This document shows positions 13,452 through 39,531 of a DNA stretch of 64,000 bases, piece by piece. The position numbers and the translations under genes are program-made. This stretch comes from Myxococcota bacterium (GTDB taxonomy: Bacteria > Myxococcota_A > UBA796 > UBA2385), in the NCBI GenBank assembly GCA_044344255.1, contig JBIJDH010000017.1, forward strand, positions 32,001 through 96,000, written 5' to 3'. The notes under the pieces were generated by a model. That model had not been told where the DNA came from. It saw only the letters and a program-made list of their open reading frames with translations, and did not search any database. Within the stretch, counting starts at the first letter, position 1. Each line of letters begins with the position of its first letter.

Positions 13452-15143
13452 ATGCATATACGGCCTGAAAACCCGATGATCGTCCAGGGGGACGGAAAGG
13501 TCCTCCTGGAGACCCGTCACCCTCGGTACGAAGAGGCGCGTGACTTCCTCGGCCGCTTCGCAGAGCTCGAGGCCTCCCCCGAGCTCCTGCACACGTACCG
13601 GATCGGTCCCCTCTCCCTGTGGAACGCCGCCTCAGCCGGCATGACCCTCGAAGAGATCACCGATGGGCTCCGGACCTGGTCGAAGTTCGACGTCCCTGCG
13701 GAGGTGATCACCACCACCAAGGAGACGCTCGAGCGTTACGGCCTCGTCAAGCTGATCCCCCACCCCGAGCAGCCCGGCAAGCTGCTGCGGCTCATCTTCA
13801 CCACGGGCTACATCGCCAAGCTGGTCGCCAAGGAGCCCATGCTGCGAGAGCTGCTCGTCGAAGACGGGCGGCGCCACTGGGCGATCCAGGGCGGGCACCG
13901 AGGGATCTTCAAGCAGCGCGCGCTCCAGGCAGGCTGGCCCGTCGAAGACCTCGCCGGCTTCATCCCCGGCGAGCCGCTGCCCTTGGCCCTCCGCACCACC
14001 ACGGTCAGCGGCCGTCCCTTCATCGTCCGGCCCTATCAGGCGGAGGCCGCCCGACGCTGGTGGCACGAGGGCAAGCCCTCGGGCGGCTGCGGCGTGGTCG
14101 TGCTCGCTTGCGGCGCCGGCAAGACGATCGTGGCGATGGCGGCGATGAACCTCGCCCAGACCAAGACCCTCATCCTCGCGACCAACCAGGCCGCGGTGAG
14201 CCAGTGGAAGCGGGAGCTGCTCGACAAGACCACGCTCACGGAAGACGAGGTGGGCATGTACACGGGCGACACCAAGGTGATCCGCCCGGTGACCGTGGCC
14301 ACCTACCAGATCCTCACGTGGCGCCGCCAGAAGGATGAGGCGTTCGAGCACCTTCACCTCTTCGAGGACGAAGACTGGGGGCTGATCATCTACGATGAGG
14401 TCCACCTGCTCCCGGCCCCGGTCTTCGGCGCGACGGCCACGTTGCAGGGCCGCCGGCGGCTTGGCCTCACCGCGACCCTCGTCCGCGAAGATGGCCGCGA
14501 GGGCGACGTCTTCGCGCTGGTCGGCCCCAAGCGATATGACCTCCCCTGGCAGGTGCTGCAGCAAGCCGGCTTCATCGCCGACACCCGCTGCTACGAGGTG
14601 CGCGTCCCCTTCCGGCCCCTCGACGCCGGGCGCTACGAGCGGGCCGAGGAGAACGAGAAGTTCCGCATGGCCAGCGCGAACCCGGTCAAGATGGACATCA
14701 TCCGCGAGCTGCTCCTCAAGCACCGCGAGGACAATGTGCTGATCATCGGCACCTACCTCGACCAGCTCGAAGAGATCGCGAAGCGATTCAAGGCCGCGCT
14801 CATCACCGGCTCCACACACCACGCCGAGCGAGAGCGGCTCTTCGCCGCCTTCCGATCTGGGAAGCTCAAGCTGCTCGTGGTGAGCAAAGTGGCGAACTTC
14901 TCGATCGACCTCCCCGACGCCAACGTGGCCATTCAGGTGTCGGGCACCTTCGGCAGCCGTCAGGAAGAGGCCCAGCGGCTCGGCCGCATCCTCCGCCCCA
15001 AGGCCAAGCCCGCCATCTTCTACACGGTGGTGACGGGCGCGACGAAGGAGCAGGAATTCGCCATGAAGCGGCAGCTCTTCCTCACGGAGCAGGGCTACCG
15101 CTACCACATCGACGACCGCGCCGCGATGAAGGCGAGCGCATAG
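13452..15143 (+). CDS. XPB/Ssl2/Rad25-family DNA repair helicase
   Basis: N-terminal FAELEASPELLHTYRIGPLSLWNA; VLACGAGKT; DEVH; GLTAT; GSRQEEAQRLGRILRPK. Confidence 0.93.
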   Translation: MHIRPENPMIVQGDGKVLLETRHPRYEEARDFLGRFAELEASPELLHTYRIGPLSLWNAASAGMTLEEITDGLRTWSKFDVPAEVITTTKETLERYGLVKLIPHPEQPGKLLRLIFTTGYIAKLVAKEPMLRELLVEDGRRHWAIQGGHRGIFKQRALQAGWPVEDLAGFIPGEPLPLALRTTTVSGRPFIVRPYQAEAARRWWHEGKPSGGCGVVVLACGAGKTIVAMAAMNLAQTKTLILATNQAAVSQWKRELLDKTTLTEDEVGMYTGDTKVIRPVTVATYQILTWRRQKDEAFEHLHLFEDEDWGLIIYDEVHLLPAPVFGATATLQGRRRLGLTATLVREDGREGDVFALVGPKRYDLPWQVLQQAGFIADTRCYEVRVPFRPLDAGRYERAEENEKFRMASANPVKMDIIRELLLKHREDNVLIIGTYLDQLEEIAKRFKAALITGSTHHAERERLFAAFRSGKLKLLVVSKVANFSIDLPDANVAIQVSGTFGSRQEEAQRLGRILRPKAKPAIFYTVVTGATKEQEFAMKRQLFLTEQGYRYHIDDRAAMKASA

Positions 15144-15189
15144 CTGGCAACCCGCCCCGGGCCTGGCGCCCGGACGAGGACAGGCGACC

Positions 15190-24193: not shown

Positions 24194-24625
24194 TCAGGCG
24201 AAGGCGGCCTGCATCGCCGCCGTGTCACTGTACTCGTGATAACCGTACACGAGCCCGTCACGAACGGTCGCCAGCGCCGCGTACTCGTTCTCGCAGATCC
24301 GCCCCGTCGCCCGCACCCGAAAGCGCTCCCGGGCGCGTAAAAAGACGTGATCCCCCGAGGGCCAGAAGCCGAGCACTCGGATCTCGAGGTAGTCCGTGTG
24401 GTCGATGATGTGGTCGATGAAGCGGCGGATCTCCCGCCCCCGATACGGCCCCGCCCATGGGATGACCCGCGGGTCTCCCGGGAAGCTCCACGTGCAGTCT
24501 GGGTGGGTGAGGGCCTCTATACCCTCCCGATCGGCGAGGAGATAGCAGGCAAATGCCGCCTTGACGACATCGATCGGCGAGGCCGCGATGGCAGGATCAC
24601 TTGGAGCGGACGATGCGGAATTCAC
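24194..24625 (-). CDS. SnoaL/NTF2-like fold protein
   Basis: IPWAGPYRG...RFRVRATGR...VRDGLVYGYHEYSDTAA pattern; overlaps the upstream gene by 29 bp. Confidence 0.8.
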   Translation of the reverse strand: MNSASSAPSDPAIAASPIDVVKAAFACYLLADREGIEALTHPDCTWSFPGDPRVIPWAGPYRGREIRRFIDHIIDHTDYLEIRVLGFWPSGDHVFLRARERFRVRATGRICENEYAALATVRDGLVYGYHEYSDTAAMQAAFA

Positions 24626-27600
24626 GTCGGACCTCCGGGTTGCGCACCTTGCGGGTCACCTCGAAGGAGGCGGTCTGTCGGCCGACCCGACTGTCCATCT
24701 TCCACCATCGGCCGCCCTCCTTCCGCTCGATGTCCACCTCGATGTCGCCGTTGTAGGTGATGTGCGTGTACAGGAACTCGTCATCCGGCAGGGGGTGGAC
24801 GATGAGGATCTGATCCTCGGGCTTGGCGGCGACCCGGACGACGAAGCGGAGGTCGCCCCGCTCGGCCTGGAAGCTCCAGGTGGTCAGGTCGGCGTGGTGC
24901 TCTCGGTTGAAGTAGAAGGCCTCGACCAGGTTGCTGCGATAGACCTCTCCCCGGTAGACGAAGGTGGCCCAAGTAGTGGCCTGAGACCAGTCGTTGAAAC
25001 GGGCGCCGATCGCCTCCATCATGAACTCGGGGTCGCCCTCGAACTCGCCACAGTGGGCCCACGACCAGGCCTTCAGGTGCCGGGTGTTCCAGTAGTGGCC
25101 GTCGCTGGCGAGCTGATCGGTGATCGTGTAAGGCTCTCCGTTCACGACCACGGTTCCGGAGAGGCGGTGCCGCACCGCGTTCGACTGGAAGTGGGGGTAG
25201 AGCTCGAAGGCGTCCATCCCCGTCACCCGCTCGACGCCGATGGCGTCCCGCTTGTCGAGCTGGAGGTCCCAGTCCACCGTGCCCTCGGGCCCCTTCACGC
25301 GGCCCCAGGTGCGACTGTCGCTGTAGCCCGAGGGGCCGATCCGCAGCAGGATCTGCTCGTCGTTGATGACCTCGGCCCGCCCCACCGGGTATCGCTGGCG
25401 CACCGCCACGTCATTCGTGGGGTTACGGCGATCGCGGAACCAGCACCAGACCTCGGCGATGCGCGCCTCCTCGATCGGACCGTTGTGGAGCACGTACCGA
25501 ATGACCATCGACCGTTCGAGGACAGGGTCAGTCCAGAGGATGTAATAGGCCTCGGTGGCGTTCACCGTGGACAGATCGAAGCGGACCCGGTCGTCCACCC
25601 GATCGCCGACGATCGGGGCCTTCGCGACCCGCTGGTGGAGGCCGGAGAGCGAGGGGGGCCGGCTGGTCCCCTTCATCGTGTGGGAGCGGCGGCTCTGCGG
25701 GCCGCTCGGCAGGTTCTCGTAGAAGGCGTTGTCGACGAAGTAACGGGTGTATCGGCCGAGCAGCTCGAGGGGCGGCACGAGCTCGTGGTCCAGATCGGCG
25801 ATGGCCTCCATGAAGGCCGTCTTCTCGGTCGGCGGGAAGTAGATCTGCTCCTCGGACAGGGCGCGGATGAAGTCCACGAAGGGGAAGAGCGCGTTCTTTC
25901 GGAGCCGCTCGGTGCCGAGGTTCAAGAACTCGCGCTTCCAGACGTCCCAGGGCAGGCCGCGGAGCTGGTAGCCCTGGGCGCGATGCCACTCGATGTAGTC
26001 CACCACGGGCTTGCTGTCGGGGTGGAGCACGAACCAGGCCCGGTTCAGGTTGGCCTTCCGCTTCGCGATGTGGACGATCGCCTTGGAGACAAAGTCGATC
26101 GGCGCCATCTCCCACAGGGTGTCGAGCAGCGGCCAGCTCCCGAGCTGGAGGCAGCCCTTCAACATCTGGGGCAGGAACTCGTCGAGCTTCGGGTATCGGC
26201 CGTCGGAGGGGCCGCCCACCATCCCCGGGCGATAGACCCCACCGGGGATGCCCCGCTCGCGAAAGGCGGTCCACACCATCTTGTCGCTGGCGTACTTGGT
26301 CTGCTCATACCCGTTGAGCAGGTCGTCGGCGTAGAGCAGCGGGTCGGCCTCGCGGATGAGGGTGCTCCGACCGTATCCGGTCGACATGATCACGCCGAGG
26401 GTGGAGACGAAGTGCACCTGGATGGGGTTCGGCAGGTCGGCGATGGCGAGCCGGAGCACCGTCTCGGTTGAGTCGACGTTGGTCGGCTTGAGGTGCTGAT
26501 AGGGATAGACAAAGTTCACCCAGGCCGCGGAGTGGACGATGGTGTCGATCCGGGCCGCGAGGCCCTTGAACTCCGCCTCGGAGTGCCCGAGGCGGGGCTC
26601 GAGCAGGTCGCCCAGCACCACCTCGACGCGGCTCAGGTCCACCCGGTCGAGCAGCTCGTAGCGACGCAGGTTGGCGATGATCCGCAGCAGGCCGTCTTCG
26701 GGGGTGGCCGAGCGCACGAGGCAGAGCACCCGGGCGCTCGTCTGCTCGAGCAGCTCGACGAGCAGGTAGATGCCGATGTAGCCGGTGACCCCGGTGAGCA
26801 GCACCGAGCGCATCGGCCGGTCATAGGTGGAGACGTCGAAGCCGGGGTGACAGATGTCGGGGGCGAGCTGCCCCTCCTCGGCGAGGGAGAGCTGGTCGGA
26901 GAGCAGGGTGGGGGCGCGACCGGCCTTCACCTCCTCGATGGCGTGGGCGAGGCCGGCCACCGTAGGCTCGGGGATGGTCTGCAGCGAGATGCTGTCCGGG
27001 ACGCCCTGATCCCACATGCGGGCGAAGGTCTCGGCCGCCTTCAGGCTGTCGCCGCCGAGCTCGAAGAAGTTGTCGTAGATGCCCACCCGGTCGATGCGGA
27101 GCACGTCTCTCCAGATGGCGGCGATCTTCTTCTCCCAGGCCGAGCGCGGGGTGACATATTCGGTGGCGAGGCTCGGGCGGTGGATGCGGGAGGAGGCCTC
27201 GACCGCGGCCTGGAGGGCCTGGAGGTCGTGCCCATAAGCGGCGATGCGGGCATACCCCTCCGCCGCGGCGGTGCGGGGGGTGGTGTCAGTCCCGCCCTCG
27301 ACGGCCGGCTCCTCGGCCGGCGCGGCCGCCGCGAGCAGGGCCTCGGCCTCCGCGGCGTGGAAGCGGACCCGCCCCTGTCCGGCGGCCGTCTCCTCCAAGC
27401 CCAGCCCCGCGTAGAAGCCGCGGGCGACCGCGTTTCGGGGGGCGGCCTCAAAGCGCAGGTGGACGGTGGACAGTCCGGCGGCGACGGCGGCGGCGGTGAT
27501 GTGGCGCACCATCTCGTGCTCGACCCGGCGCCCGAGCACCCGGCAGCTCAGGAGGAAGAGATCGGCCTCCATCACCGGCTCACCCTCCGTGCCCACGCAT

Positions 27601-29252
27601 CCGACCGGGCGGGCCGAGAAGAGTCCGACCATGCCGTAGTCGCCGAACCGATCGGCCACGCGCACCCGGGAGAGGACCCGCCCCGGCTCCGCGGCGAAGA
27701 CCCGCAGCTCACCCTCACCCATCGGGCGGCGGGCGGCGTTGAACTGGTTGGTGCGGTGGGTGAGCTGGGCGGCGCGCGCCCACTCGTCCGGGGCAAGCGG
27801 GCCGATGTCCAGGCGCAGCTCCAGCCGGGCCAAGAAGTCCTCGAAGGTGGAGGCCACCGCCGCCACCGCCGCCCGCGCCTGGCCCTGCTGGTATTGGGCC
27901 GTGCGCCCCCGGTCCTCCTCGGTGACCACCGCGCTGTCGAAGGCCCAGTGGTGCGCGACGAAGTCCGTCAGCCGCGCGGGATCGCCGGGGAGCTCGATCG
28001 CGAGCACCCCGGGCAGCGCCTCCCGGACGAGCGCACACTCCATCGGGCTGTCGTCGAGGAAGAGGAAGCTGTCGAGGCCGAGGTTGAGCTCGCGGGCGAG
28101 GCCGCGGAGGTTGTCGGACTTCGGCTCCCAGTTGATGCGCCAGCCGACGAGGTGCTCACGTTGGAGCGGCATCTCGGGGTGTGCGTCGAAGACCCGCCAC
28201 ACGAGCGCCTCGTCGTTCTTGCTGGCGAGGCAGAGCAGCTTGCCGGACGCCTGCTGGGCCACGAGGAAGCGCTGCAGGGCCGCGTACGGCCCGCTGACAT
28301 CGACCCCCTCCGGGCCCTCCTCCCCCACGACGCCGCCCCAGATCGTGTTGTCGCAGTCCACCACGATCACCTTCGCCGGGCTCGTGTGGAGCGCGGCGAC
28401 GGCGCGGGCGATCTCCGCCCCGATCGCCGCGCAGGCCGGCGGGGTGAAGGGGATGTGGCCGAGGCGGTCACGGGCCTCATCCCACATCCGCGCGATCGGG
28501 AAGCGGTCGTCGACGTGCCGCAGGTCCAGCAGGTGAGCGCCGGGGGCGGCGGACACCGCCTCGATGATGCGCTGGTTCAGTCGGCCGAGCTCGGTGGACA
28601 GCCCGAGCCGGCGGACGGCCCCGGGCGAGCTCGGCGCCAGCGCCACGATCATCGGCGGTCGGCCGCGCCGCTGGAAGGCGTCGAGGGCCCGACAGAGATC
28701 GTCCACCGTGCGCTCCACCTCACCGAGCTCCACCGCGGCTCCGTATCGGAACCAGTCCTCGATCCGCAGCAGCAGCACGCTCACGCCGGACTGGGCGGCG
28801 GAGAATGTGCTGGCGGGGCTCATCAACTCCTGGAACACCTGATTGTAACGAGAGAAGATCACCTCCGGCTCGAAGCGCAGGAGGCCGAGCAGGTGCCGGA
28901 GGGCCTCCTCGATGGGCTCGGCGGTGAAGGTGGCGGCGATGCGAACCGGCAGGCGCGCGGCGGCAGAGGCGGCCCTGGCCGCTCGGTTCTCGCGCATCCG
29001 GAGCAAGGTCTCGACCATGTCGTCGAGGGTGGGGAACTCATAGAGGAGAGTGGGCTCGAGCTCGATCTCGAGCACCTTCTCCAGCTCTCCGGTGAGGCGG
29101 ACCACGTGGACCGAGCTGATGCCGAGCTCGGAGAGGGCCATGGTGAAGTCAATCCGAGTGTAACCGAGGTCGGAGGACTTGGAGAGCTCGTGGTGGAGCC
29201 AGTCGCGGAAGCCCTGGACGCTGCTGCGGGCGGTGGAGAGGAGGGTGCTCAT
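24597..29252 (-). CDS. Multidomain enzyme: ACP, FkbH (HAD-IIIC glyceryl transferase), carrier protein, thioester reductase, tocopherol-cyclase/AttH-like domain
   Basis: LGISSV (ACP); VDCDNTIWGG, ASKND, INWEPKS, FLDD, RTNQFN, DRFGDYG, LSCRVLGR (FkbH); FFELGGDSL (carrier); LTGVTGYIG and YEQTK (reductase); EAYY, DGHYWN, WSWAHC (C-terminal beta domain, least certain). Confidence 0.85.
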   Translation of the reverse strand: MSTLLSTARSSVQGFRDWLHHELSKSSDLGYTRIDFTMALSELGISSVHVVRLTGELEKVLEIELEPTLLYEFPTLDDMVETLLRMRENRAARAASAAARLPVRIAATFTAEPIEEALRHLLGLLRFEPEVIFSRYNQVFQELMSPASTFSAAQSGVSVLLLRIEDWFRYGAAVELGEVERTVDDLCRALDAFQRRGRPPMIVALAPSSPGAVRRLGLSTELGRLNQRIIEAVSAAPGAHLLDLRHVDDRFPIARMWDEARDRLGHIPFTPPACAAIGAEIARAVAALHTSPAKVIVVDCDNTIWGGVVGEEGPEGVDVSGPYAALQRFLVAQQASGKLLCLASKNDEALVWRVFDAHPEMPLQREHLVGWRINWEPKSDNLRGLARELNLGLDSFLFLDDSPMECALVREALPGVLAIELPGDPARLTDFVAHHWAFDSAVVTEEDRGRTAQYQQGQARAAVAAVASTFEDFLARLELRLDIGPLAPDEWARAAQLTHRTNQFNAARRPMGEGELRVFAAEPGRVLSRVRVADRFGDYGMVGLFSARPVGCVGTEGEPVMEADLFLLSCRVLGRRVEHEMVRHITAAAVAAGLSTVHLRFEAAPRNAVARGFYAGLGLEETAAGQGRVRFHAAEAEALLAAAAPAEEPAVEGGTDTTPRTAAAEGYARIAAYGHDLQALQAAVEASSRIHRPSLATEYVTPRSAWEKKIAAIWRDVLRIDRVGIYDNFFELGGDSLKAAETFARMWDQGVPDSISLQTIPEPTVAGLAHAIEEVKAGRAPTLLSDQLSLAEEGQLAPDICHPGFDVSTYDRPMRSVLLTGVTGYIGIYLLVELLEQTSARVLCLVRSATPEDGLLRIIANLRRYELLDRVDLSRVEVVLGDLLEPRLGHSEAEFKGLAARIDTIVHSAAWVNFVYPYQHLKPTNVDSTETVLRLAIADLPNPIQVHFVSTLGVIMSTGYGRSTLIREADPLLYADDLLNGYEQTKYASDKMVWTAFRERGIPGGVYRPGMVGGPSDGRYPKLDEFLPQMLKGCLQLGSWPLLDTLWEMAPIDFVSKAIVHIAKRKANLNRAWFVLHPDSKPVVDYIEWHRAQGYQLRGLPWDVWKREFLNLGTERLRKNALFPFVDFIRALSEEQIYFPPTEKTAFMEAIADLDHELVPPLELLGRYTRYFVDNAFYENLPSGPQSRRSHTMKGTSRPPSLSGLHQRVAKAPIVGDRVDDRVRFDLSTVNATEAYYILWTDPVLERSMVIRYVLHNGPIEEARIAEVWCWFRDRRNPTNDVAVRQRYPVGRAEVINDEQILLRIGPSGYSDSRTWGRVKGPEGTVDWDLQLDKRDAIGVERVTGMDAFELYPHFQSNAVRHRLSGTVVVNGEPYTITDQLASDGHYWNTRHLKAWSWAHCGEFEGDPEFMMEAIGARFNDWSQATTWATFVYRGEVYRSNLVEAFYFNREHHADLTTWSFQAERGDLRFVVRVAAKPEDQILIVHPLPDDEFLYTHITYNGDIEVDIERKEGGRWWKMDSRVGRQTASFEVTRKVRNPEVRREFRIVRSK

Positions 29253-29256
29253 CGGT

Positions 29257-32200
29257 TCACTCGACGGGGAGGAGAGGGTGGAAGGCGTGGAGGAGCCAGC
29301 GCGCCAGGACGCCGAGCTCGGGCGGTGGACAGGGCTCGGCGAGGCCCGGAGCGACCCGCAGCGGGAGCCCGTCGAAGAGCTCGAGCAGCGTCTCGGTCGC
29401 CCCGCTCGGCCGCTCGAGCAGGAAGGTGTGGACGGGGAACAAGGGGTTGTCGAGCGGGAGGCCGGCGCGCAGGCGGTCGAGCCAGCGCGGCAGCGCCTCC
29501 GGGGAGAGGCGGGCGCCCTCGGCCTCGAGCGCCGCCATCAGCTCGGACAGGCGAGTCGGGCGGGCGGTGGTCCAGTGATAGTAGTCTATCGTCTCGATCG
29601 GGCGGCCGATTGAGGCGGCGATGCCCTCTGCCACGTCGTCCACCGCCACCAGATCGAGCTCGATCTCGGCGTCCGGCCAGCGGCCGAGCGCCGCGCAGCC
29701 GAGCAGGAAGCGGCTCAGGAAGTCATCGAGGTGCCCGACCCCCGTCTCGCGCGCCCCGACGATCAAGCCCGGGCGATGGATGACGAGAGGGATGGCGCAG
29801 TGCCCGGCCACGCGCAGGAGAGACTCGGCCACCCACTTGGTGCGCGCGTATCCCGAATAGAGAAACTCCGGCTCCAGGACCCGGTCTGTCGCGAGCACGA
29901 GGCGCTGCTCCCGCCGGTTGCGGGTGTTGAACACCGCCGTCGTAGACACGAAGTGGAGAGGCCGCGCCGCGCCCCCCGACAGGGCGAGCGACACGAGCAC
30001 CGGGATCGGCCCCACGTTTACGGGGGCGAGAGCGGAATAGGGCGCCACGAAATTCACGTCGGCCGCGTTGTGAAGCAGTCCGCCGAGCTCCTCCCCCTGT
30101 CGGGCCCACTCCGCGCTGGACAGGCCGAGGCCGGGCGCCCGGAGGTCTCCCGGCAGGGCGACGACGCGCCCCGGGAGGCCCAAGGCCTGGAGACGGTCAT
30201 TCAGGCCCCCCGTCGCCGCGGCGTCGGCCTGTCCGTCCAGCCCAGGCAGCGGGCCGTGGGCGAGGGCCCGGAGGAGCCTCCCCTCCGCCTCAACGGCGTC
30301 GGCCGCCCGGACGAGGCAGCGCACCTCCCCGCCGCGGCGCAGCAGCGCGGCGAGGGTGTGCGCGCCGAGGAAGCCGGTCGCACCCGTGAAGAGCAGGGGG
30401 CCCTCCGTCGCCCGCTCCGGCGGTCGCTGGTGGGGGAGGGCCCGGGTGAGGTCGCGCACGGCCTCCCGCCAGCCCGGGACGGCGTCGAGCTCGACCTGGC
30501 GCGCGCGGCCCGCGCCTCGCATCGCCTCCGCGAGCGCCACGGCCACCGCGCCGAGCGAGCTGCCGTCAAAGAAGGCGCGGAGGGGCGGCTCGACGCCGAG
30601 CAGGCCGCGGAGGGCGGTGATGAGGGTGGCGAGATCGAGCGAGGAGAGGCCGAGCTCGAGGGGCGGGCGCTCGAGGGCCTCGGGGCCTGCGCCGAGGCGC
30701 TGGAGCAGAACAGCGGCGATCGCGTCGACCAGGAGGGGGCCCTCGAGCCCGACCAGCGAGGGAGCGGGGCCCGCGGCGGGGGCCGACCCGCGACCGAGGT
30801 CCGCGCGCTCCCCCCAGGTGCCGGCGTGGGCCAGGGCGGCACAGGCGGCGCGGGCGAGCTTCTGGGTGGGGGTGCGCGGGATCGCGCCCGGCGGCAAGAG
30901 GTAGAGGGCGGCGATGGCGAGCCCGTGGCGCTCCGAGACCGCTCGCCGCGCCGCGCGGCGCAGCGCCCGAGCGCCCGCCTCGCCGTCCTCGGCCGGGGGC
31001 TCCGTCGCCCGGCGCTCCATCGCCAGCCCGAGGGCCTCTTCACCCTCTTGGAGCACGGCGAAGGCGGCCACCTCCACGAGGCCGTGCTCGTCGCAGGCGA
31101 CGCGCAGGGTGGCCTCGACATCGACCGGGTCGTGGTTCTTACCCCGGACGATGATGAGCTCCTTCAGCCTCCCGGTGACATAGAGCTCCCCCACCTCCCC
31201 CACCTCCCCCACCTCCCCCACCTCCCCCGCTGCTCCGCGCTCCACGACGCCGAGGTCGCCGGTGCGAAACCACTCCCCCTCCGCGCCCTCGAGGGTGGCG
31301 GCGCAGCGGGCCCGAGAGTCCTCGGCGGGGCCGGTGTAGCGGCGGATGACGCCGGGCCCCTGGGTCCAGAGCTCACCCACCCGCCCGGGGGGCAAGGCGA
31401 CGCGGCGCTCGGGGTCGACGGCGATCACGCGGGTGTCGGGGCCGAGCGGCGGGCCGTTGCTGATCAGCCAGCGCGTGTCGGCGGTGTCGAGGGGGGCCTG
31501 GAGCCTCCCCGAGGCCAGCCCCGCGCGGCTCACACTGAGTCGGGCGGGCGGGCGACCCTGGGGGATGCTGGTGCAGAGCGTCTCAGTCAGGCCGTAGTAG
31601 GGGTGGAGCGCGGCCGGGCGCAGGCCGGCGGGGGCGAGGCGGCCGAAGAAGGCGTCCACCGTCGCCGGGCGCACCACCTCGCCGCCCGAAACGGCCATGT
31701 CCAAGGCGGAGAGGTCGAGCGCGGCGATCGCGTCGTCGGTGAGCAGCTTCGTGACGAGGGCGTAGGCGAAGTCCGGGGCCGCGGTGACGGTGGCGCGGGC
31801 GCGAGACAGCACCTCGAGCCAGAGGGGGGGCCGCTGTAAGAAGGCCTGGGGCGAGAGGATCACCCCCTCGGCGCCAAGGAAGACGGGCAGCAGCCGCGTG
31901 TAGAGGCCGGCGACGTGGGCCCAGGGCAGCCAGGTGCAGACCACGTCCGCGGGGCCTCGCCCGCAGCACCGCGCCAGGGCGGCGAGGTTGTGCGTGAGGG
32001 CGCCGTGGCGGAGGACCGCCCCCTTCGGCGAGCCGGTCGAGCCCGAGGTGTAGAGGAGGACGGCGGTGGCCTCGGGATCATCGGGCAGGGGCCGCGCGTC
32101 TCCGGGGGTCTCGGCCTCGGGCTCCACCCTCAGCTCCACCCAGCGCAGCGGCCGCCCGTCGGCGCGCAGCAGGGGGAGCAGGGGCTCGGCCAGGGCCCGC

Positions 32201-32577
32201 GGGGCGAGGAGCAAGCGGGCATCGGCGTCCTCAGCCACCCGGAGCAGTGCGGCCCGGCCCGCCTCATCGGTCGGGGGATAGAGCGGCACGGCCACCGCAC
32301 CCGACACCGCACAGGCGAAGAGGCCGACCGGCTGCTCGACCCCCGGGCCGGTGACGAGCAGGACCGCGGCCCCTTGGACCGCGCTCTGGCCGTCTGAGAG
32401 GGCCTCCGACAGGGCCGCCGAGAGGGTCGCCCCGAGGGCGCGGGCGGCGCGGGACAGGCCGCGCGCGCCGAGTCGGGCGGCGGGCTCCCCGTGCAGATCG
32501 AGGAAGGTGTAGAGCGGGCGGTCGGGCGCGGCCGGATCGGCGAGCAGCGCGGCGAGGCTCCGCGGTCGCGCGGTCAT
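29257..32577 (-). CDS. Fatty acyl-AMP ligase, ACP, thioester reductase fusion
   Basis: YTSGSTGSPKG, WLP, YYGLTE, RTGDLG, GRLKELIIVRGKNHDPVDVE; LGLSSL (ACP); FTGATGFLG, HNAADVN, GYARTKW; ATG at 32577 overlaps the upstream TGA. Confidence 0.85.
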   Translation of the reverse strand: MTARPRSLAALLADPAAPDRPLYTFLDLHGEPAARLGARGLSRAARALGATLSAALSEALSDGQSAVQGAAVLLVTGPGVEQPVGLFACAVSGAVAVPLYPPTDEAGRAALLRVAEDADARLLLAPRALAEPLLPLLRADGRPLRWVELRVEPEAETPGDARPLPDDPEATAVLLYTSGSTGSPKGAVLRHGALTHNLAALARCCGRGPADVVCTWLPWAHVAGLYTRLLPVFLGAEGVILSPQAFLQRPPLWLEVLSRARATVTAAPDFAYALVTKLLTDDAIAALDLSALDMAVSGGEVVRPATVDAFFGRLAPAGLRPAALHPYYGLTETLCTSIPQGRPPARLSVSRAGLASGRLQAPLDTADTRWLISNGPPLGPDTRVIAVDPERRVALPPGRVGELWTQGPGVIRRYTGPAEDSRARCAATLEGAEGEWFRTGDLGVVERGAAGEVGEVGEVGEVGELYVTGRLKELIIVRGKNHDPVDVEATLRVACDEHGLVEVAAFAVLQEGEEALGLAMERRATEPPAEDGEAGARALRRAARRAVSERHGLAIAALYLLPPGAIPRTPTQKLARAACAALAHAGTWGERADLGRGSAPAAGPAPSLVGLEGPLLVDAIAAVLLQRLGAGPEALERPPLELGLSSLDLATLITALRGLLGVEPPLRAFFDGSSLGAVAVALAEAMRGAGRARQVELDAVPGWREAVRDLTRALPHQRPPERATEGPLLFTGATGFLGAHTLAALLRRGGEVRCLVRAADAVEAEGRLLRALAHGPLPGLDGQADAAATGGLNDRLQALGLPGRVVALPGDLRAPGLGLSSAEWARQGEELGGLLHNAADVNFVAPYSALAPVNVGPIPVLVSLALSGGAARPLHFVSTTAVFNTRNRREQRLVLATDRVLEPEFLYSGYARTKWVAESLLRVAGHCAIPLVIHRPGLIVGARETGVGHLDDFLSRFLLGCAALGRWPDAEIELDLVAVDDVAEGIAASIGRPIETIDYYHWTTARPTRLSELMAALEAEGARLSPEALPRWLDRLRAGLPLDNPLFPVHTFLLERPSGATETLLELFDGLPLRVAPGLAEPCPPPELGVLARWLLHAFHPLLPVE
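31186..31228 (-). repeat. In-frame 9-bp tandem repeat encoding (GEV)4-GE
   Basis: CTCCCCCAC x4 plus CTCCCCC on the + strand. Confidence 0.9.
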
Positions 32578-34301
32578 TCGGCCGCCTCGAGCGCGCCGCC
32601 CGACCAGCGCTCCCGACAGAGGCGCCGCTGCACCTTGCCGCTCGTGGTCTTCGGCACCTGTCCGGCGCGGACCAGCCGGATGTCGACGATGGGCAGCTCG
32701 TGGCGCTCGCCGAGGGTCCGGCCGATGTGCCGACAGAGGGCGACCCGCTCGGGCGCCGACAAGGGGCTCCGAAGCTCCGCCACGACGACCACCCCTTCTC
32801 GCTCGCCTTGATCGACCCCAAAGGCGGCGACAAAATTGCGCCGGATGGCGGGGTGGGCGTCCTCGACGCTGAGCTCGATGTCTTGGGGATAGTGGTTCTT
32901 GCCGGCGACGATGATGACGTCCTTGTCCCGTCCGGTGATGAAGAGCTCGCCGTCTGTGTCGACGAAGCCGAGGTCTCCCGTGCGGAGGAAGCGCCTCGGG
33001 TCTCCCTCGAAGCGGGCCCCGAAGACGTCGGCGTCGGGCCGGCCCCAATAGGTCTCGGGGAACCAGGCCGCCGTCGAGCAGATCTCCCCCACCCGCCGCG
33101 GGGGGAGGGCGAGCCCGGTCTCCGTGTCCCGGATCTTCACCGACACACCCCCGAGCGGCTGGCCCGCCGACACGATGGCCCGCGCACCGGGCCCCTCCGA
33201 GGCCTGGACCCGCCCGAGGCTGAGGGCGGAGGGATCGAGGTTCAGCCGGCGGTGCGCCCGACCTCGCGGGGTGCTGGACACCGCGAGGGTGGCCTCGGCG
33301 AGCCCGTAGCCGGGCTGCATCACCTCGGCCCGAAAGCCATAGGGGCCGAATTTCGCCTGAAAGCGGTCGATCGTGGCCGCCCGCACCGGCTCGGCGGCGT
33401 TGAGGCTCATCGCCAAGCCAGAGAGGTCGAGGCCTGGGATAGAGCTGGGATCGACGTCATCGACGCAGAGGTCATAGGCGAAGTTGGGCGCCAGGGTGAA
33501 GGTCACCCTGTGTCGCGAGAGGGCGGCCAGCCACTCGCCGGGCGCCTTTACGAAGGCGGTCGGCCGGGCCAGCAGCAGGGGATAGCCCGTATAGAGCGCC
33601 TGGAGGGCGCCGAGCACGAGGCCAAGGTCGTGAAAGAGGGGGATCCAGCACAGCGCGCGGTCTGTCGCGCGGAGCGAGAAGCTGTGTTCGAGCGCCTCTC
33701 CCTGAAAGATGAGATCGCCGTGGCGCACGACGACGCCCTTGGGCGCGGAGGTCGAGCCCGACGTGTACTGGAGGAAGGCCACCTCCTCCGCCTGGGGATA
33801 ATGGTCGTCCCAGTCCTCACAGCGGCTGTCCGGCACCGCCTCGACCGCGATGCCCTGGATCCGGTCGAGCGCCGACGACAGGCCCGCCTCGGACCTCATC
33901 CGGGCGAGCAGGGGGGCGTCGGAGAGGGCGAAGGTCGCTCCGCAGTCCTCGATCACCCGCGAGAGGCGCAGGGCGTGTCGGGCGTGGGCGAGCGGGGGCA
34001 TCGGCACCGCCACCGCGCCCGCGTAGGCGCAGGCGAGGAATGACATGAGATAGTCGGGGTCATTCTCCAGGAGGATGAGCACCCGCTGGCCGGCCGCGCC
34101 GGTAGCCTGGAGGGTCGCGGCGAGGGCGCGCACCCGCCGGTCCAAGGCGGCCCAGGTGTAGGGGCGTCCGGGCTCTGTCCAGCGGGGGAGCCCGGTCAGG
34201 ATCACCCGCTCGGGCTGAGACTCGGCGCGGGTGCGCACGAGGTCGACGTAGCTGGTCCAGGGCAGACGTGAGAGGTCCGCCCGCGTGGCGCTGTGCACCA
34301 T
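32574..34301 (-). CDS. Stand-alone fatty acyl-AMP ligase (FAAL)
   Basis: AFLQYTSGSTSAPKGV, WIPLFHDLGL, APNFAYDLC, AEPV, YGLAEATL, RTGDLG, GKNHYPQDIE, PKTTSGKVQR. Confidence 0.9.
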   Translation of the reverse strand: MVHSATRADLSRLPWTSYVDLVRTRAESQPERVILTGLPRWTEPGRPYTWAALDRRVRALAATLQATGAAGQRVLILLENDPDYLMSFLACAYAGAVAVPMPPLAHARHALRLSRVIEDCGATFALSDAPLLARMRSEAGLSSALDRIQGIAVEAVPDSRCEDWDDHYPQAEEVAFLQYTSGSTSAPKGVVVRHGDLIFQGEALEHSFSLRATDRALCWIPLFHDLGLVLGALQALYTGYPLLLARPTAFVKAPGEWLAALSRHRVTFTLAPNFAYDLCVDDVDPSSIPGLDLSGLAMSLNAAEPVRAATIDRFQAKFGPYGFRAEVMQPGYGLAEATLAVSSTPRGRAHRRLNLDPSALSLGRVQASEGPGARAIVSAGQPLGGVSVKIRDTETGLALPPRRVGEICSTAAWFPETYWGRPDADVFGARFEGDPRRFLRTGDLGFVDTDGELFITGRDKDVIIVAGKNHYPQDIELSVEDAHPAIRRNFVAAFGVDQGEREGVVVVAELRSPLSAPERVALCRHIGRTLGERHELPIVDIRLVRAGQVPKTTSGKVQRRLCRERWSGGALEAAE

Positions 34302-34380: not shown

Positions 34381-37221
34381 CTATCGCCGCGCGGGCCCCT
34401 CATCGCCGGCCAGCGCGGCGAGGACCTGCCCCCGCACAGCGCGCTCGTCCAGGGCCCGCGCCGCCGCCCGCTGCTCCGGCGAGGGCGGCGTCGACCGCGG
34501 GTCTGACGCCGTCTCCCGGTCGATCTGGTCACAGAGCTCCAGAACCTCGTAGACCGGCGCGGCCTGCCGGAACCAGTCGAGGAGGGCGAGGAGCTCCGGC
34601 TGCGGGCGGAGGCGGAGGGCCCGCTGGAGCAGGGCGAGGGCGCCGAGGCGGGAGGACACCAGCAGCGAGGGCTCGGCCGCCCAGGCCAGGGGCTCCGCCG
34701 GCCCTGCCTCATCGGATGCCCACCACGACAGCGCCCCCATGAGCAGGCCCTGGTCAGGCACCCGGGCGAGCCCCCGCTCCGCCCACGCCCGCTCGATGTG
34801 GGGCCTGGCGAGGGCGCGGGGGAGGCGGAGCCAGGCGATGACCGCCCGGTTGGCGCTGGGGAGGAAGCGCGCGCCCTCATCGCCGAGCTCACGGCCGAGG
34901 GCCTCGGCATCGTCCAGCATGCGGAAGGCCCGATCGAGCTCCCCTTCGAGCCCGAGCACCATGCCGACGCCGAGCAGCGCTCCGTGCTCCGCGCGCCGGT
35001 GGCCCTCGTGGCGGCTCAGGCGGAGCCCCTCCTCGAGCCCCTGGCGCGCCTCGGCGAGGTGACCCGCCGCCCGCTCGACCAGGCTGAGGTTGTTGAGGAT
35101 CACGCAGGTAGACTCCGTCGTCCCGACCCGACGGCTGAGGGTGAGGCACTCCCGATAGAAGCGGGACGCCGTGTCGGAGTCACCGCGCAGCCGGGCGATG
35201 TTGCCGAGACCGTTGAGCGCGGGGAGGGCCACCGACGGGTTCTCGATGCGGTCGGCGAGGCGCACCGACTCGGCGTAGAGGCGGCGCGCCTCCTCGAGCT
35301 GGTTCTGCTCGTAGAGCGCGGTGCCCCACGACATCAGCAGGCTCACCACATATCCAGGGGCGCGGGCCGCCCGCGCCACCTCGATGAGCTCCGGCAAGCG
35401 CGCCAGGATGCCGGCGGGATCGCATCGCCAGCCGCTCTCGCTGAGCTGGTGGACGATCCGCGCCCGGTGGTACGGATCGACCTCGTGGCGGAGGGCCTCG
35501 TCGAGCTCGCTCATCGCGTCGGCGGCCCGACCGCGGTCCATCGCGGTTCGGCCGAGGGCGAGGGCGCGCTCCGTTCGGAGACCGGGGGCCGTGGCGCCCG
35601 GAGCCTGGCCGAGGACCTGCAGCCGCTCCCAGTCCGCGGCGGCGCCGTCGGGGCGCGGGGGGTTCTGGAGAGCGATGTACTCCCAGCGCAGGGCCTCCGG
35701 GCGGCCGAAGGTGGCGGCGGCCTGGGCGGCGGCGAGCAGGGCGCGGCGCACGAGGGCCGACTCCGCGCGGGCCCAGGCCCACGCAGCGAAGCCGGTCGTG
35801 GCGCGGGAGAGCAGCGCCCAGTCGCCCTCCAGCACCGCGTCGTCCCAGGCGGCGAGCAGATCGGCGCGGAGGGGGGCCATGGCGCGGACGGCGGCCCGCT
35901 GATCGGGGCCGACAAAGCTCGCCTGGAGCTCGATGAGGCGCCCGAGGAACCAGCGGCGGTGCCGCTCCTGGACCGCGGGCCTGCCCTCGAGGCGGGCGGC
36001 GAGCTGTGTCCGCAGCATGGGGTGGAGAGACCAGCGGCCGCCCTCTCCGCAGCTCAGGAGCGAGCGGCCGCCGAGGGTGTCGAGCTCGGCGGCGCTGAGG
36101 CCTGCGACCTCGGCGGCGGCCTCCTCATCGAAGGTGCCCCGCAGCACGGACAGCGCGGCGGCCGGCGCCCGGAGGCCCACGGGGAGGCTGGCCCAGGTGC
36201 GCCCGAAGGACCCTGCGAATCCTCGCTGCTCTCCCACGCCGTCGATCACGGCGCGAAGGCCCTGGTCCTGGGCGACCGCCGCCGCGAGCGCGATGCCGAG
36301 CGGGAGCCCCCCGAGGCGCTCCGCGAGCTCGGCGATGGCCATCTCCTCTTCGACGTCGGGGATCCATGCGGGGCGCCCGTGGCAAAGGCGCTGCCGGAGC
36401 AGGGAGGCCGCCGCCGCGGGCTCCAAGGGGCCGAGGCGCAGGAGGAGCTCGCCGGGGAAGTCGAGGCTGGCCCGCGAGGTCATCACGACGCCGAGGCCCG
36501 GATCGCGGGCGCAGAGCCGCTGAAAGACCGCGCCCAGGCCGAGGACGCTCTCGAGGTTGTCGAGGATGACGAGCAGCCGCCGTTCGAAGAGGATCCGCCC
36601 GAGCAGGGCCTCGGCGCCCCGCTGCGAGGAGGGGACGCTGCCGAGGGCCTGCAGGACGGTGAGCAGCGCCTCCTCCTCCTCCCGTTGGGCGCTGAGGTCG
36701 ACCCAGAGGACCCCCGAGAAGCGCGGCGCCTGCTCCGCTCGCCGCGCGAGGGCCCGCGCAAGGGCGGTCTTGCCGACCCCGCCGATGCCGACGACGCTCA
36801 GCCAGGGCTCATTGCCCGCCAGCCAGCGGTCGAGGAAGGCCAGCGCCTCCCCGCGGCCGAAGAGCTCGGCGTCCGGCGTGGGGGCCGGGAGCAGCGCCTC
36901 CTCGCGCACCCCGGTGAGCCGGTAGCCTTGGGCGCGGATGGACTGCAAGCAGGCGCCCGCTGGCTCGAGCTTGCGGCGGAGGTTGGACAGCGTGACATCG
37001 ACCACCCGCGTCCGGGTGGAGGGCGAGTATTGCCAGACCTCGACGAGCAGCTCGTCGCGGCTCACGTCCTCGTCGCGGCGCCGGGCGAGGTGGCGCAGCG
37101 CCTGGAGCTCCTTCGGGCGGAGGAGCTCCGCCTTGGCGGCCCCGCCGACCAGCCCGCTGTCGAGGTCGACGGTCACGGTGAGGGCGGCGCTGGAGCCGAT
37201 GTCGAGGCGGAGGATGGCCAT
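34381..37221 (-). CDS. Winged-helix, STAND (NB-ARC-like) ATPase, TPR transcriptional regulator
   Basis: SRDELLVEVW...VDVTLSNLRRKLE...GYRL (OmpR-type wHTH); FGR, GIGGVGKT, ILDNLE, GGLPLGI; C-terminal TPR-like helices. Confidence 0.85.
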   Translation of the reverse strand: MAILRLDIGSSAALTVTVDLDSGLVGGAAKAELLRPKELQALRHLARRRDEDVSRDELLVEVWQYSPSTRTRVVDVTLSNLRRKLEPAGACLQSIRAQGYRLTGVREEALLPAPTPDAELFGRGEALAFLDRWLAGNEPWLSVVGIGGVGKTALARALARRAEQAPRFSGVLWVDLSAQREEEEALLTVLQALGSVPSSQRGAEALLGRILFERRLLVILDNLESVLGLGAVFQRLCARDPGLGVVMTSRASLDFPGELLLRLGPLEPAAAASLLRQRLCHGRPAWIPDVEEEMAIAELAERLGGLPLGIALAAAVAQDQGLRAVIDGVGEQRGFAGSFGRTWASLPVGLRAPAAALSVLRGTFDEEAAAEVAGLSAAELDTLGGRSLLSCGEGGRWSLHPMLRTQLAARLEGRPAVQERHRRWFLGRLIELQASFVGPDQRAAVRAMAPLRADLLAAWDDAVLEGDWALLSRATTGFAAWAWARAESALVRRALLAAAQAAATFGRPEALRWEYIALQNPPRPDGAAADWERLQVLGQAPGATAPGLRTERALALGRTAMDRGRAADAMSELDEALRHEVDPYHRARIVHQLSESGWRCDPAGILARLPELIEVARAARAPGYVVSLLMSWGTALYEQNQLEEARRLYAESVRLADRIENPSVALPALNGLGNIARLRGDSDTASRFYRECLTLSRRVGTTESTCVILNNLSLVERAAGHLAEARQGLEEGLRLSRHEGHRRAEHGALLGVGMVLGLEGELDRAFRMLDDAEALGRELGDEGARFLPSANRAVIAWLRLPRALARPHIERAWAERGLARVPDQGLLMGALSWWASDEAGPAEPLAWAAEPSLLVSSRLGALALLQRALRLRPQPELLALLDWFRQAAPVYEVLELCDQIDRETASDPRSTPPSPEQRAAARALDERAVRGQVLAALAGDEGPARR

Positions 37222-37383: not shown

Positions 37384-39531
37384 ATGTCTCCGTTCATCTT
37401 GCTCGCGCTGCTCCCTGCCCAAGCTGCAGAGGAGGTCATCTTCAGCAACTCCGCAGGGTGTACGCTGGTGGCCGATGGCACTCGACTGATCGTACGCGGG
37501 TGCAATCTTGAGGTACAGAACGGCTCGGGCTCGACGACCACCAGCAATGGGCTCGGCAACGTCATCGTCGGATACAACACCTCCGACGCCGCTGACCTCC
37601 GTACGGGCTCTCACAATGTCGTGGTGGGCGATCTCAACGACTACCAGAGCACCGCCGGAATCGTCGCTGGCTACGACAATACGCTCAAGGGCACTCACTC
37701 CGTGCTCGCAGGCGGCTCGAAGAACAAGGTCTACACGAGCTACAGCGCGACCCTCGGCGGCCGCCAGAACACGGTGAGCACCCAGACCTACGCGGTGGCA
37801 GTGGGCGGCCGACTGAACACGGTGAGCGGCCAGTTCGCCACGGTCATGGGCGGCGATACAAACTCCGTGACGGGGAAGTGGGGCACGGCGGTGGGCGGGA
37901 TGTCCACCGCGATGAGCACCGTCTCCGGCACGCAGCTCGGCGGCATCACCACCACGGAGCTGGACGACACCGCGTTGGACCTCGCCGTGCTCGACAGCTC
38001 GGTGTCGGCGCTGGAGCTCAATGACCTCGACCAGGACAGCACCCTCGCCGATCACGAGACCCGCCTTGGCCTCGCCGAGGCCTGGCTCGCCGCGCTCGAC
38101 GCCACCACATCCACTCTCGGCGAGTCCTTCTCCGGAGTGACCGCCTCAGTCTCAGCGCTGACCACTGACCTCTCCTCCCTGGCCGGCGTCGTCGGGCAGG
38201 TGTCCACCGACCTCTCGGCCCTCAGCTTGTCTGTCGGTGACGCCCTCCTCGACATCGTCACGCTCCAGTCTTCCGTCGCCGCGCTCGAGAGCGACCTCGC
38301 GGCGACAGACCTCTCCGGGATCAACGAGCTGCTCGCCTTCGTCCGCGTTGACACCGCCGGAGACGTGGTCTTCGAGGGCACCAACCTTCGTGTCGAGAGC
38401 GGGACCGGCAACACCTGGTCGGCTCCGAATGGGAAGGGGAACCTCATCATCGGCTACGACGAGGACAGCACCCTCGGCGACTGTGCGGGCTACGGCGTCG
38501 ACAAGACCGGCTCCCACAACCTCGTGATGGGGGCATGCAACGAGTATGCCGGCTACGCCGGCCTCGTCGGGGGAGCATTCAACCGGATCAGCGATGGATA
38601 TTCGGCGGTGGTCACCGGCAACTACAACGACGCCACCGGAGCTTATAGCGCCGTCCTGACCGGCAACGCCAATGACGCCACAGGGGCCTTTGGCGCGATC
38701 GTCTCCGGCTCGGCGAACACCGCATCCTCTACCGGAGGCGCCGTCCTCTCGGGCTACGGCAACGACGCGACCTACGGGATCTACAACGCGGTGCTGGGCG
38801 GACAGAACAACACAGCCTCGGGCAACTACGCCTCGGTCGGGGGCGGGATGGACAACATCGCCTCCGGGACCGCCGCGGCGATCGGCGCGGGCTGGGCCAA
38901 CACCGCCTCCAACCACACCTCCTCGGTCACGGGAGGGGCAGGCAACCTCGCGAGCGGGGTGACCTCCGTGGTGGCATCCGGCTCTGGTAACCAGTCAGAC
39001 TGTGGGCAGTGTGCGGTGCTCGGCGGCTATGAGAACGACACGACAGGTGGATTCTACGCCACCGCCGCCGTGGTCGTGGGCGGTCGCTCCAACACCGCGG
39101 ACGGATACTACGCGGTCGCGCTGGGCGGCTATTTGAACAAGGCAGACTGGACCTACTCTACGGCGGTCGGAGGGACCGAGAACCTCGCGACCGGCCAATA
39201 CAGCGTCGCGGTGGGCGGCGAGGAGAACGACGCCAACGGTGACTACACCGTGGCGGTGGGTGGCTTCAACAACACCGCCTGGGGAGCCTACGCATCCACC
39301 CTTACAGGTATCTCGAATGACGCGTCCGGCGCGTACTCCGCGGTCCTCGGGGGGAGCCAGAACGACGCGATCGGCAACTACGCGCTCGTGGGCGCCGGCT
39401 TCAGCAATCAAGCCTGGGCAGAGTACTCGGCGGTCCTCAATGGAGGTTCCAACATCTCCAACGGATATGCCGCCACGATCCTCGGTGGAAGCGGGGTCAG
39501 CACCACCACCTCCTACGCCGTCACCCCCTGA
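37384..39531 (+). CDS. Secreted adhesin-like protein with YadA-head-like repeats and a coiled-coil stalk
   Basis: Signal peptide (MSPFILLALLPAQA); many GGxxNxAxGxxSxV repeats; heptad-like central segment; no C-terminal beta-barrel. Confidence 0.75.
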   Translation: MSPFILLALLPAQAAEEVIFSNSAGCTLVADGTRLIVRGCNLEVQNGSGSTTTSNGLGNVIVGYNTSDAADLRTGSHNVVVGDLNDYQSTAGIVAGYDNTLKGTHSVLAGGSKNKVYTSYSATLGGRQNTVSTQTYAVAVGGRLNTVSGQFATVMGGDTNSVTGKWGTAVGGMSTAMSTVSGTQLGGITTTELDDTALDLAVLDSSVSALELNDLDQDSTLADHETRLGLAEAWLAALDATTSTLGESFSGVTASVSALTTDLSSLAGVVGQVSTDLSALSLSVGDALLDIVTLQSSVAALESDLAATDLSGINELLAFVRVDTAGDVVFEGTNLRVESGTGNTWSAPNGKGNLIIGYDEDSTLGDCAGYGVDKTGSHNLVMGACNEYAGYAGLVGGAFNRISDGYSAVVTGNYNDATGAYSAVLTGNANDATGAFGAIVSGSANTASSTGGAVLSGYGNDATYGIYNAVLGGQNNTASGNYASVGGGMDNIASGTAAAIGAGWANTASNHTSSVTGGAGNLASGVTSVVASGSGNQSDCGQCAVLGGYENDTTGGFYATAAVVVGGRSNTADGYYAVALGGYLNKADWTYSTAVGGTENLATGQYSVAVGGEENDANGDYTVAVGGFNNTAWGAYASTLTGISNDASGAYSAVLGGSQNDAIGNYALVGAGFSNQAWAEYSAVLNGGSNISNGYAATILGGSGVSTTTSYAVTP

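Follow-up and report, generated by a model that had tools for sequence, protein, structure and literature searches.

A four-gene FAAL–FkbH–reductase cluster of a Myxococcota bacterium and a candidate acyl-to-glyceryl transfer domain ahead of FkbH

How might a thiotemplate pathway join a fatty acyl chain to a C3 unit when it encodes no ketosynthase (KS), condensation (C) or thioesterase (TE) domain? The question is raised by four consecutive genes, A to D, in a 64,000-nucleotide stretch of contig JBIJDH010000017.1 (assembly GCA_044344255.1) from a Myxococcota bacterium, referred to here as the window. They combine fatty acyl-AMP ligases (FAALs), acyl carrier proteins (ACPs), thioester reductase (R) domains, an FkbH glyceryl-loading domain, a cyclase-like domain and a SnoaL protein. 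The original prediction, made from the DNA alone, described an assembly line without any of these three domains and assigned the joining to the cyclase-like and/or SnoaL proteins. Their absence stands, but an unannotated 200-residue SGNH-fold domain in protein C had been overlooked, and it gives the line a candidate for the joining step.

The gene set and an SGNH-fold domain ahead of FkbH

All four open reading frames are intact on the minus strand, and their coordinates and junctions were confirmed: genes A and B share an ATGA overlap, B and C are separated by 4 bp (ACCG), and C and D overlap by 29 bp (Table 1). Gene D starts with GTG, preceded by GGAGGT. GC content at third codon positions is 0.80-0.93 across the four genes, in a host genome of 8.2 Mb (95% complete, 71% GC). 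A Pfam/NCBIfam scan of proteins A to D found no KS, C (PF00668) or TE domain, as originally claimed, and no match to PlsC-type acyltransferases (PF01553) or to an FAD-binding domain. The domain search also agrees with the predicted three carriers, one FkbH and two thioester reductases. Ser is retained in each of the three PP-binding domains, and the FkbH domain clears the TIGR01686 cut-off of 146.65 bits, with D299, D301 and C570 present in 50 of 50 rows of the family alignment. Against a TIGR01746 cut-off of 213.35 bits, the reductase of C lies above and that of B (205.4) just under; PF07993 exceeds its own cut-off for both, and their GxxGxxG and S/T-Y-K motifs are unbroken. The claim of two FAALs survives in part: FAAL families are the best NCBIfam matches for the AMP-binding domains of both A and B, but all fall below the curated cut-offs. 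Gene A retains an HDLGL motif; in gene B, H-x-A-G-L and SGGE replace the HDxGL and NxAE of A, motif changes that make its adenylation domain a divergent subtype.

The gene A counterpart is fused directly upstream of ACP-SGNH-FkbH-T-R (T, second carrier domain) in two proteins, P0068 and P0073, and gene A would load the N-terminal ACP of protein C. Gene B has 35 close homologs of identical architecture (P0143-P0177), and its motifs are unbroken among 40 aligned homologs; we infer that it encodes a fatty aldehyde/alcohol synthase. In gene D, residues D32, E100, E131 and D134 are invariant in an alignment of 10 cluster-linked homologs, and its PDB sequence matches include TerC (E 6e-05).

Between the first ACP and the FkbH domain of protein C, within ~15 residues of the ACP, lies a segment (residues 98 to 295) without a Pfam match. 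Its model, based on 64 homologous rows, reached a predicted local distance difference test (pLDDT) score of 95. Structurally, it aligns with the N-terminal domain of the FkbH protein BF1531 (Z 18.8, root-mean-square deviation (rmsd) 3.0, 192 aligned positions) and, at Z 12-15, with GDSL/SGNH esterases and O-acyltransferases (7e16: Z 14.9, rmsd 3.1, 176 aligned). The structure search returned 145 chains at Z ≥ 8, and the top 50 rows were nearly all GDSL/SGNH proteins; PDB sequence searches with the SGNH profile gave nothing useful. Two motifs mark the domain, A-[S/T]-F-T after the first strand and D-x-x-G-H-x-P near the end, the former read from sequence as the place of the GDSL nucleophile. 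Across the 50 aligned family rows, residue 108 is Ser in 30, Thr in 18 and Asn in 2, and His266 is invariant (50/50). By sequence, S/T108, D262 and H266 are conserved at positions matching a catalytic triad, within A-S/T-F-T and D-x-x-x-H. The invariance of the His in the family contrasts with 13 of 19 loci in which a C domain lies upstream. The motif is degenerate in L089, the single locus where a FAAL-polyketide synthase (PKS) line feeds C-FkbH-T-R, and P0072 carries Arg in place of the His. The solved BF1531 also lacks this His, which the fold therefore does not require. Compared with known FAAL-ACP-C-HAD-T modules, the cluster lacks only the C. The fold, the conserved motif and the location in the slot of a C domain make this domain a natural candidate for acyl-to-glyceryl transfer. 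It is predicted to be an O-acyltransferase that would pass the acyl chain to a glyceryl hydroxyl; the evidence for this role is modest. Stand-alone SGNH-FkbH-T-TE proteins of ~1000 aa were also observed (L021-L090, P0078-P0120), many of which keep the S/T and the His.

Table 1. Positions of the cluster genes, the domains of protein C and the upstream regulator in the window
Feature	Position	Strand	Evidence
Gene A, stand-alone fatty acyl-AMP ligase, 575 aa	32574..34301	-	PF00501, E 3.6e-64
Gene B, divergent FAAL-like adenylation domain + ACP + thioester reductase, 1106 aa from ATG	29257..32577	-	Pfam/NCBIfam
Gene C, ACP-SGNH-FkbH-T-R-AttH/tocopherol-cyclase-like, 1551 aa	24597..29252	-	Pfam/NCBIfam, homologs
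Gene D, SnoaL/NTF2-like, 143 aa	24194..24625	-	PF12680 (SnoaL_2), E 4.5e-11
C: N-terminal acyl carrier domain, Ser47	28968..29222	-	PF00550; Ser47 in 50/50 rows
C: SGNH-fold domain, residues 98-295, Thr108, Asp262, His266	28368..28961	-	Predicted structure
C: FkbH glyceryl transferase/phosphatase, D299-x-D301, Cys570	27393..28376	-	TIGR01686, 294.8 bits
C: second carrier (T) domain, Ser736	26922..27155	-	PF00550; Ser736 in 50/50 rows
C: NAD(P)H thioester reductase	25698..26804	-	TIGR01746, 243.3 bits
C: AttH/CrtC/tocopherol-cyclase-like double beta-barrel	24600..25622	-	Predicted structure; PF14249 in homologs
Winged-helix/NB-ARC/TPR regulator, 79 bp upstream of gene A	34381..37221	-	Domain scan

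Conservation, distribution and neighboring genes

Protein C has 26 homologs that cover 89-100% of its length at 53-72% identity (P0002-P0027), together with ~35 shorter homologs without the last domain. The order A-B-C-D recurs in L019, L107 and L014, the last with a phosphopantetheinyl transferase (PPTase) gene between C and D. Loci L017 (Verrucomicrobiota) and L093 carry A, B, a short C, SnoaL and the cyclase as its own gene; L092 encodes B, a short C, a membrane protein, the cyclase and A beside fabH, msbA and lpxK; and L016 (Uabimicrobium) encodes a short C, a short-chain dehydrogenase/reductase (SDR), A and B. The same gene order in other genomes indicates that the cluster is not a chance arrangement. 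Gene B is present in all nine loci able to show it (L014, L016, L017, L019, L020, L091, L092, L093 and L107), and gene A in all seven of those with enough flanking sequence; the predicted conservation of the set, which recurs across phyla, is thus upheld. The cluster also occurs on metagenome contigs, fused or split. Family counts are lower bounds, as the scan of genome contigs, whose list of at least 77 loci was filled with generic FkbH genes, missed the Mycobacterium marinum member.

The cluster is rare, being found in 6 of 154 genomes of the host's order and 3 of 401 in a phylum sample; two other phylum samples (1/401 each) and a further order sample (1/251) returned the seed genome only. 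A tblastn search of plasmids gave 59 records, none with ≥80% query coverage and all below 60% identity, and three metatranscriptomes yielded only short pieces from other organisms. Six related loci carry a dedicated PPTase (L014, L019, L093, L113, L096 and L097), and the T domain is 65-88% identical across loci. In a quick, midpoint-rooted R-domain tree supported by SH-aLRT only, the C family forms a clade of 72 rows (SH-aLRT 100) apart from the R domains of C-containing FkbH-T-R proteins, with the fused form as a subclade of 29 rows (SH-aLRT 100); the B reductases form a separate clade of 14 rows (SH-aLRT 97). A form with ACP-T-R from which SGNH-FkbH has been deleted nests inside the C family, which suggests that the R domain accepts a long-chain lipid substrate. 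This derived form (L096:2515-9486 and L097:7296-17402) comprises a FAAL, the ACP-T-R protein, a PPTase and fatty acid hydroxylase-family genes, and is possibly a fatty aldehyde/alcohol or hydrocarbon pathway.

A full-length C homolog (56% identity) is present in M. marinum, M. shottsii and M. pseudoshottsii, and the M. marinum R domain nests among the relatives of the window. From annotation and accession order, the M. marinum homolog is probably MMAR_0469, which follows two acyl ligases and lacks an M. tuberculosis ortholog. In the available part of a transposon-sequencing study (inoculum and amoeba), MMAR_0466-0469 appear as non-essential, with log2 fold changes of -0.16 to 0.3 and q of 0.9-1 (PMC10878075), so that those data do not point to a function during infection of amoebae. 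In the literature searched, no main-text mention of MMAR_046x was found. In the P0022 sequence cluster, one strain of M. marinum has the gene recorded as separate pieces of 573 and 976 aa, and M. ulcerans has a 303-aa piece.

Several neighbors hint at the product. In L092, the membrane-protein gene that separates C from the cyclase, where L017 and L093 have SnoaL, is YhhN (lysoplasmalogenase)-like; the protein scores 0.91 in a language-model atlas, with a template-modeling (TM) score of 0.81. L098 has two YhhN-like paralogs after the cyclase (58% identical to each other), the first scoring 0.90 in the atlas. Compared with YhhN clusters, the predicted structures of the L092 and L098 proteins reach TM 0.62-0.81. 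The proteins of the two loci do not align pairwise, which suggests two recruitments. YhhN enzymes are described as hydrolyzing vinyl ethers, one of them shielding M. tuberculosis from lysoplasmalogens. L016 adds CdsA, a CDP-alcohol phosphatidyltransferase and an FGGY kinase. The same Uabimicrobium locus also encodes a fusion of FAAL, ACP and cytochrome P450, a truncated FAAL and three SDR genes that are nearly identical (L016:3450-6872). The YhhN-like, CdsA and CDP-alcohol transferase neighbors point to glycerolipid or ether chemistry.

The regulator upstream of gene A is possibly linked to the cluster and is not a conserved part of it: a homolog adjoins the cluster in one other genome (G421), the host has ~6 paralogous loci, and L019 and L107 carry two-component genes at this position. 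The downstream metallophosphoesterase, TlyA, IspA and PlsC-like genes were not seen as conserved neighbors. Elsewhere, the window encodes an XPB-like helicase followed by a Helicase_C_3/WYL partner protein (13452-17532, plus strand), a 715-aa secreted-looking coiled-coil protein with long Gly/Asn/Ala repeats and a weak ice-binding beta-roll match (37384-39531, plus strand), and a 1580-aa Ser/Thr kinase-nSTAND1-WD40 protein adjoining an FHA/winged-helix regulator (39592-44334, minus strand). Contig C20 of the host holds a further lipid cluster, in which genes for an acyltransferase and a fatty acid desaturase come after that of a 2054-aa flavin amine-oxidase/FAAL/ACP/thioesterase protein (L119:3418-11383).

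The AttH-fold domain, the proposed scheme and its rivals

The C-terminal domain of protein C, modeled from 116 rows (pLDDT 94.7), matches only six PDB clusters above Z 8, namely CghA (Z 22.9), Fsa2 (22.2), the AttH protein NE1406 (22.0), a further pericyclase (21.9), kievitone hydratase (20.9) and 25-phosphosteroid lyase (18.5). A PDB sequence search with this domain gave nothing useful. The tocopherol cyclase family PF14249 scores 22.4 and 26.2 bits against a cut-off of 26.6 and is matched by 96 of the 116 homologs. Residues E1234, R1252, H1386, E1413 and E1531 are conserved across the wider AttH-fold family; Asp1384 occurs in all 11 cluster-type rows, a position held by Gln in 81 of all 116. 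The domain is encoded by a separate gene in L017, L092, L093 and L098, and complex prediction with the SnoaL protein scored 0.06. No prenyltransferase gene was found among the conserved neighbors of related loci. In CrtC-type enzymes an acidic residue is reported to protonate a C=C bond, leading to the addition of oxygen (PMC6013536), and an AttH protein is described as hydrating archaeal lipids (10.1101/2025.10.20.683597). As modeled, the AttH fold supports acid-base C-O chemistry and fixes no particular reaction. The idea that the cyclase-like and SnoaL proteins do all the joining is not supported, since the SGNH domain is the better candidate for acyl-to-glyceryl transfer and each of the two proteins is missing from some loci. 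A stand-alone tocopherol-cyclase-like family of ~340 aa was also observed (P0263-P0409; 428 representatives at E ≤ 0.001), apparently unstudied.

In the proposed scheme, each reaction of which we infer from observed genes, folds, conserved residues and gene order, FAAL A would load a fatty acid onto the N-terminal ACP of protein C. FkbH would load D-glyceryl from 1,3-bisphosphoglycerate onto the T domain, an established chemistry for this family. The SGNH domain would then move the acyl chain to a glyceryl hydroxyl, replacing the ester-forming C domain of vioprolide and corramycin biosynthesis, and the R domain would release O-acyl-glyceraldehyde or monoacylglycerol. That an acyl-glyceryl unit is made on the carrier in this way and released reductively is probable. 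Protein B would supply a fatty alcohol or aldehyde, and the AttH-fold domain, aided by SnoaL, would form a C-O bond. Most plausibly, the acyl group would be eliminated from acyl-glyceraldehyde and the fatty alcohol added, an FAD-free acyl/alkyl exchange resembling that of AGPS; alternatively, the fatty aldehyde and a free hydroxyl could give an enol ether or acetal. On stereochemical reasoning, sn-1 would derive from C3 of D-glycerate and a free sn-3 position from the reduced C1, as in natural 1-O-alkyl-sn-glycerols. The whole scheme, with an ether-type joint to the fatty alcohol or aldehyde, is put forward tentatively, at somewhat short of an even chance. Its most specific form, an oxygen- and flavin-independent glycerol ether-lipid route in which SGNH joining and an AttH lyase yield 1-O-alkyl- or 1-O-alkenyl-sn-glycerol, is speculative and rather doubtful.

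Several observations weigh against this scheme. No cyclase was detected in the genome of Uabimicrobium, which keeps A, B and C, and four loci (L016, L092, L098 and L114) lack SnoaL. The 35 close matches of gene B include none from M. marinum, and the likely M. marinum locus is flanked by two ligases and a small gene, apparently with no B. As none of the cyclase, SnoaL and B is present throughout, the conserved core would be FAAL plus ACP-SGNH-FkbH-T-R, with a variable joining step. The best Z scores of the AttH fold belong to Diels-Alderases. The YhhN-like assignments come from the language-model atlas, in 2 of 14 related loci, and the L092 and L098 proteins have no Pfam match (PF07947) at E ≤ 1. 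The host already encodes ElbD and ElbE, which, together with the rarity of the cluster in its order, makes the cluster accessory and not a housekeeping ether route.

The SGNH assignment meets objections of its own. The motif is non-canonical, with neither GDS nor DxxH kept, and almost every locus with this type of FkbH has such a domain ahead of it. Across 63 FkbH loci (13 of the 77 were dropped because they lacked a near-complete open domain), the His is kept in 6/6 family loci, 13/19 with an upstream C domain and 33/38 with neither an ACP nor a C domain upstream; the contrast between the last two groups is not significant (Fisher p 0.15), and kin among them are not independent. With the domain this general and its His kept in 33 of 38 other loci, it may serve FkbH otherwise. 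The His persists in P0071 despite an adjacent C domain. A rival explanation gives the domain a purely structural place in FkbH, or has it pass glyceryl outward so that glycerate is esterified to a fatty alcohol while both R domains reduce fatty acyl carriers. The generality of the domain in this FkbH type and the missing His of BF1531 fit this view, and the ACP-T-R deletion form suggests that R can work without FkbH. We consider this explanation improbable, since the R domain stands directly behind the FkbH-loaded T domain in a highly conserved T-R pair and the His is invariant in the family.

Another rival keeps acyl transfer and separates the products: A and C would make a monoacylglycerol or acyl-glyceraldehyde derivative, B would independently make a fatty alcohol or aldehyde, and AttH and SnoaL would tailor one product by hydration, isomerization or intramolecular cyclic ether formation. 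FAAL-ACP-SGNH-FkbH-T-R does exist alone as one protein (P0068 of Deinococcus yavapaiensis, and P0073), the variable presence of cyclase, SnoaL and B fits such a separation, and SDR genes follow C in L016 and L094. This is rather unlikely: B accompanies every locus able to show it and is translationally coupled in the window, and YhhN-like neighbors suit ether better than ester chemistry. The pericyclases among the top fold matches, and the resemblance of D to the terfestatin enzyme TerC, would instead favor the aldol-type C-C joining of two aldehydes, with AttH and SnoaL cyclizing the product to an O-heterocyclic lipid of furan, butenolide or pyran type that serves as a signal or weapon. The patchy, apparently transferred distribution, in which M. 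marinum nests among the relatives of the window, and the dedicated PPTases agree with this picture; no exporter or resistance gene is conserved, and the lipid-metabolism neighbors in L016, L092 and L098 argue against it, leaving it quite unlikely. Least credible is that A to D form a starter module for a nonribosomal peptide synthetase (NRPS) or PKS encoded elsewhere. The host, on its contig C17, and genome G417 have one C-domain locus each, but the search for C domains came up empty in 4 of 5 carrier genomes (two 90-92% complete, two of unstated completeness), in keeping with the predicted independence from an NRPS in trans, and terminal R domains release their product and do not hand it on.

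Relation to known systems and significance

The preferred scheme, acyl transfer by the SGNH domain followed by reductive release and a possible ether-type joint, was compared with characterized pathways. Tetronate clusters combine FkbH, an ACP and a FabH-like enzyme. FkbH forms a glyceryl-carrier in both systems, whereas release here is reductive and a FabH-like gene is absent from the window cluster and 13 of 14 related loci, the fabH upstream in L092 being probably housekeeping. The eukaryotic and myxobacterial AGPS route (GNPAT, FAR, AGPS and a reductase) exchanges acyl for alkyl. Only the proposed logic is alike, with a fatty alcohol added to an acylated C3 unit; the cluster lacks an FAD-linked enzyme and would draw its C3 unit from 1,3-bisphosphoglycerate on a carrier. 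Protein B shares the A-T-R layout and unbroken motifs of carboxylic acid reductases and FAAL-ACP-R synthases but differs in its adenylation subtype, its own R clade and its tie to the cluster. With the AttH/CrtC/tocopherol cyclase superfamily (including Hgs), the C-terminal domain shares the fold at Z 18-23 and conserved His/acid residues; it differs in its low identity (6-14%), its fusion behind a thioester reductase and the cluster-specific Asp1384.

Closer in organization are the vioprolide VioA and corramycin ComK modules, FAAL-ACP-C-FkbH(HAD)-T, which are expected to make a fatty acyl-glycerate ester (PMC8949500, PMC10099666). In both those modules and the cluster, a FAAL-loaded ACP adjoins an FkbH-loaded glyceryl carrier. 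Unlike VioA and ComK, the cluster has no C domain, leaving SGNH as the sole candidate between ACP and FkbH; it releases by an R domain where the VioA/ComK unit is extended by an NRPS; and it adds a second acyl-reductase protein, the AttH-fold domain and SnoaL. The cluster would resemble an acyl-glycerate starter of the vioprolide type that stands alone and ends in reductive release. A C-domain-using counterpart is the acidobacterial locus L089:19-13408, where FAAL-ACP-KS-AT-DH-ER-KR-ACP is followed by C-SGNH(degenerate)-FkbH-T-R and a LolA-like/FtsX exporter; it would release a reduced acyl-glycerate.

The ElbB-ElbE operon of Myxococcus xanthus, in which ElbD combines a FAR-like R domain, an acyl-CoA synthetase, an ACP and an acyltransferase (PMC9131029), shares with the cluster acyl activation, an ACP, a reductase, an acyltransferase, a HAD-family protein and a second Rossmann reductase. 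Even for ElbD, in vitro proof of the acyltransferase and reductase steps is reported as lacking (PMC9131029). The cluster differs from ElbD in domain order and families, having no PlsC-type acyltransferase and adding FkbH glyceryl loading and the SGNH and AttH folds. The host itself carries an elb-type operon (L123:3599-10907, contig C52, ~169.6-176.9 kb) with a Lar_N protein, an ElbD-type R-ligase-ACP-acyltransferase and an epimerase; its ElbD-type gene encodes 1570 aa and has ElbC- and ElbE-like neighbors. The cluster lies outside the vioprolide-type, ElbD and tetronate families, each by a tested defining feature. In line with the original prediction, no characterized cluster of matching architecture was found in the papers searched, a set that largely did not cover the subscription literature.

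The formation of ether bonds in bacterial lipids is only partly known. The cluster is compact, comprising four genes and a PPTase, and within the window it includes no membrane enzyme; its counterpart in the cultured and tractable M. marinum makes the question directly testable. Even in the weaker reading, the cluster would represent acylation of carrier-bound glycerate without a condensation domain, and would suggest a function for the SGNH domain found in FkbH proteins, which is unstudied and left unannotated here by genome-mining tools. If the ether route is correct, the SGNH domain would be a new kind of thiotemplate chain-joining domain, and its occurrence ahead of many FkbH modules would mark an overlooked catalyst.

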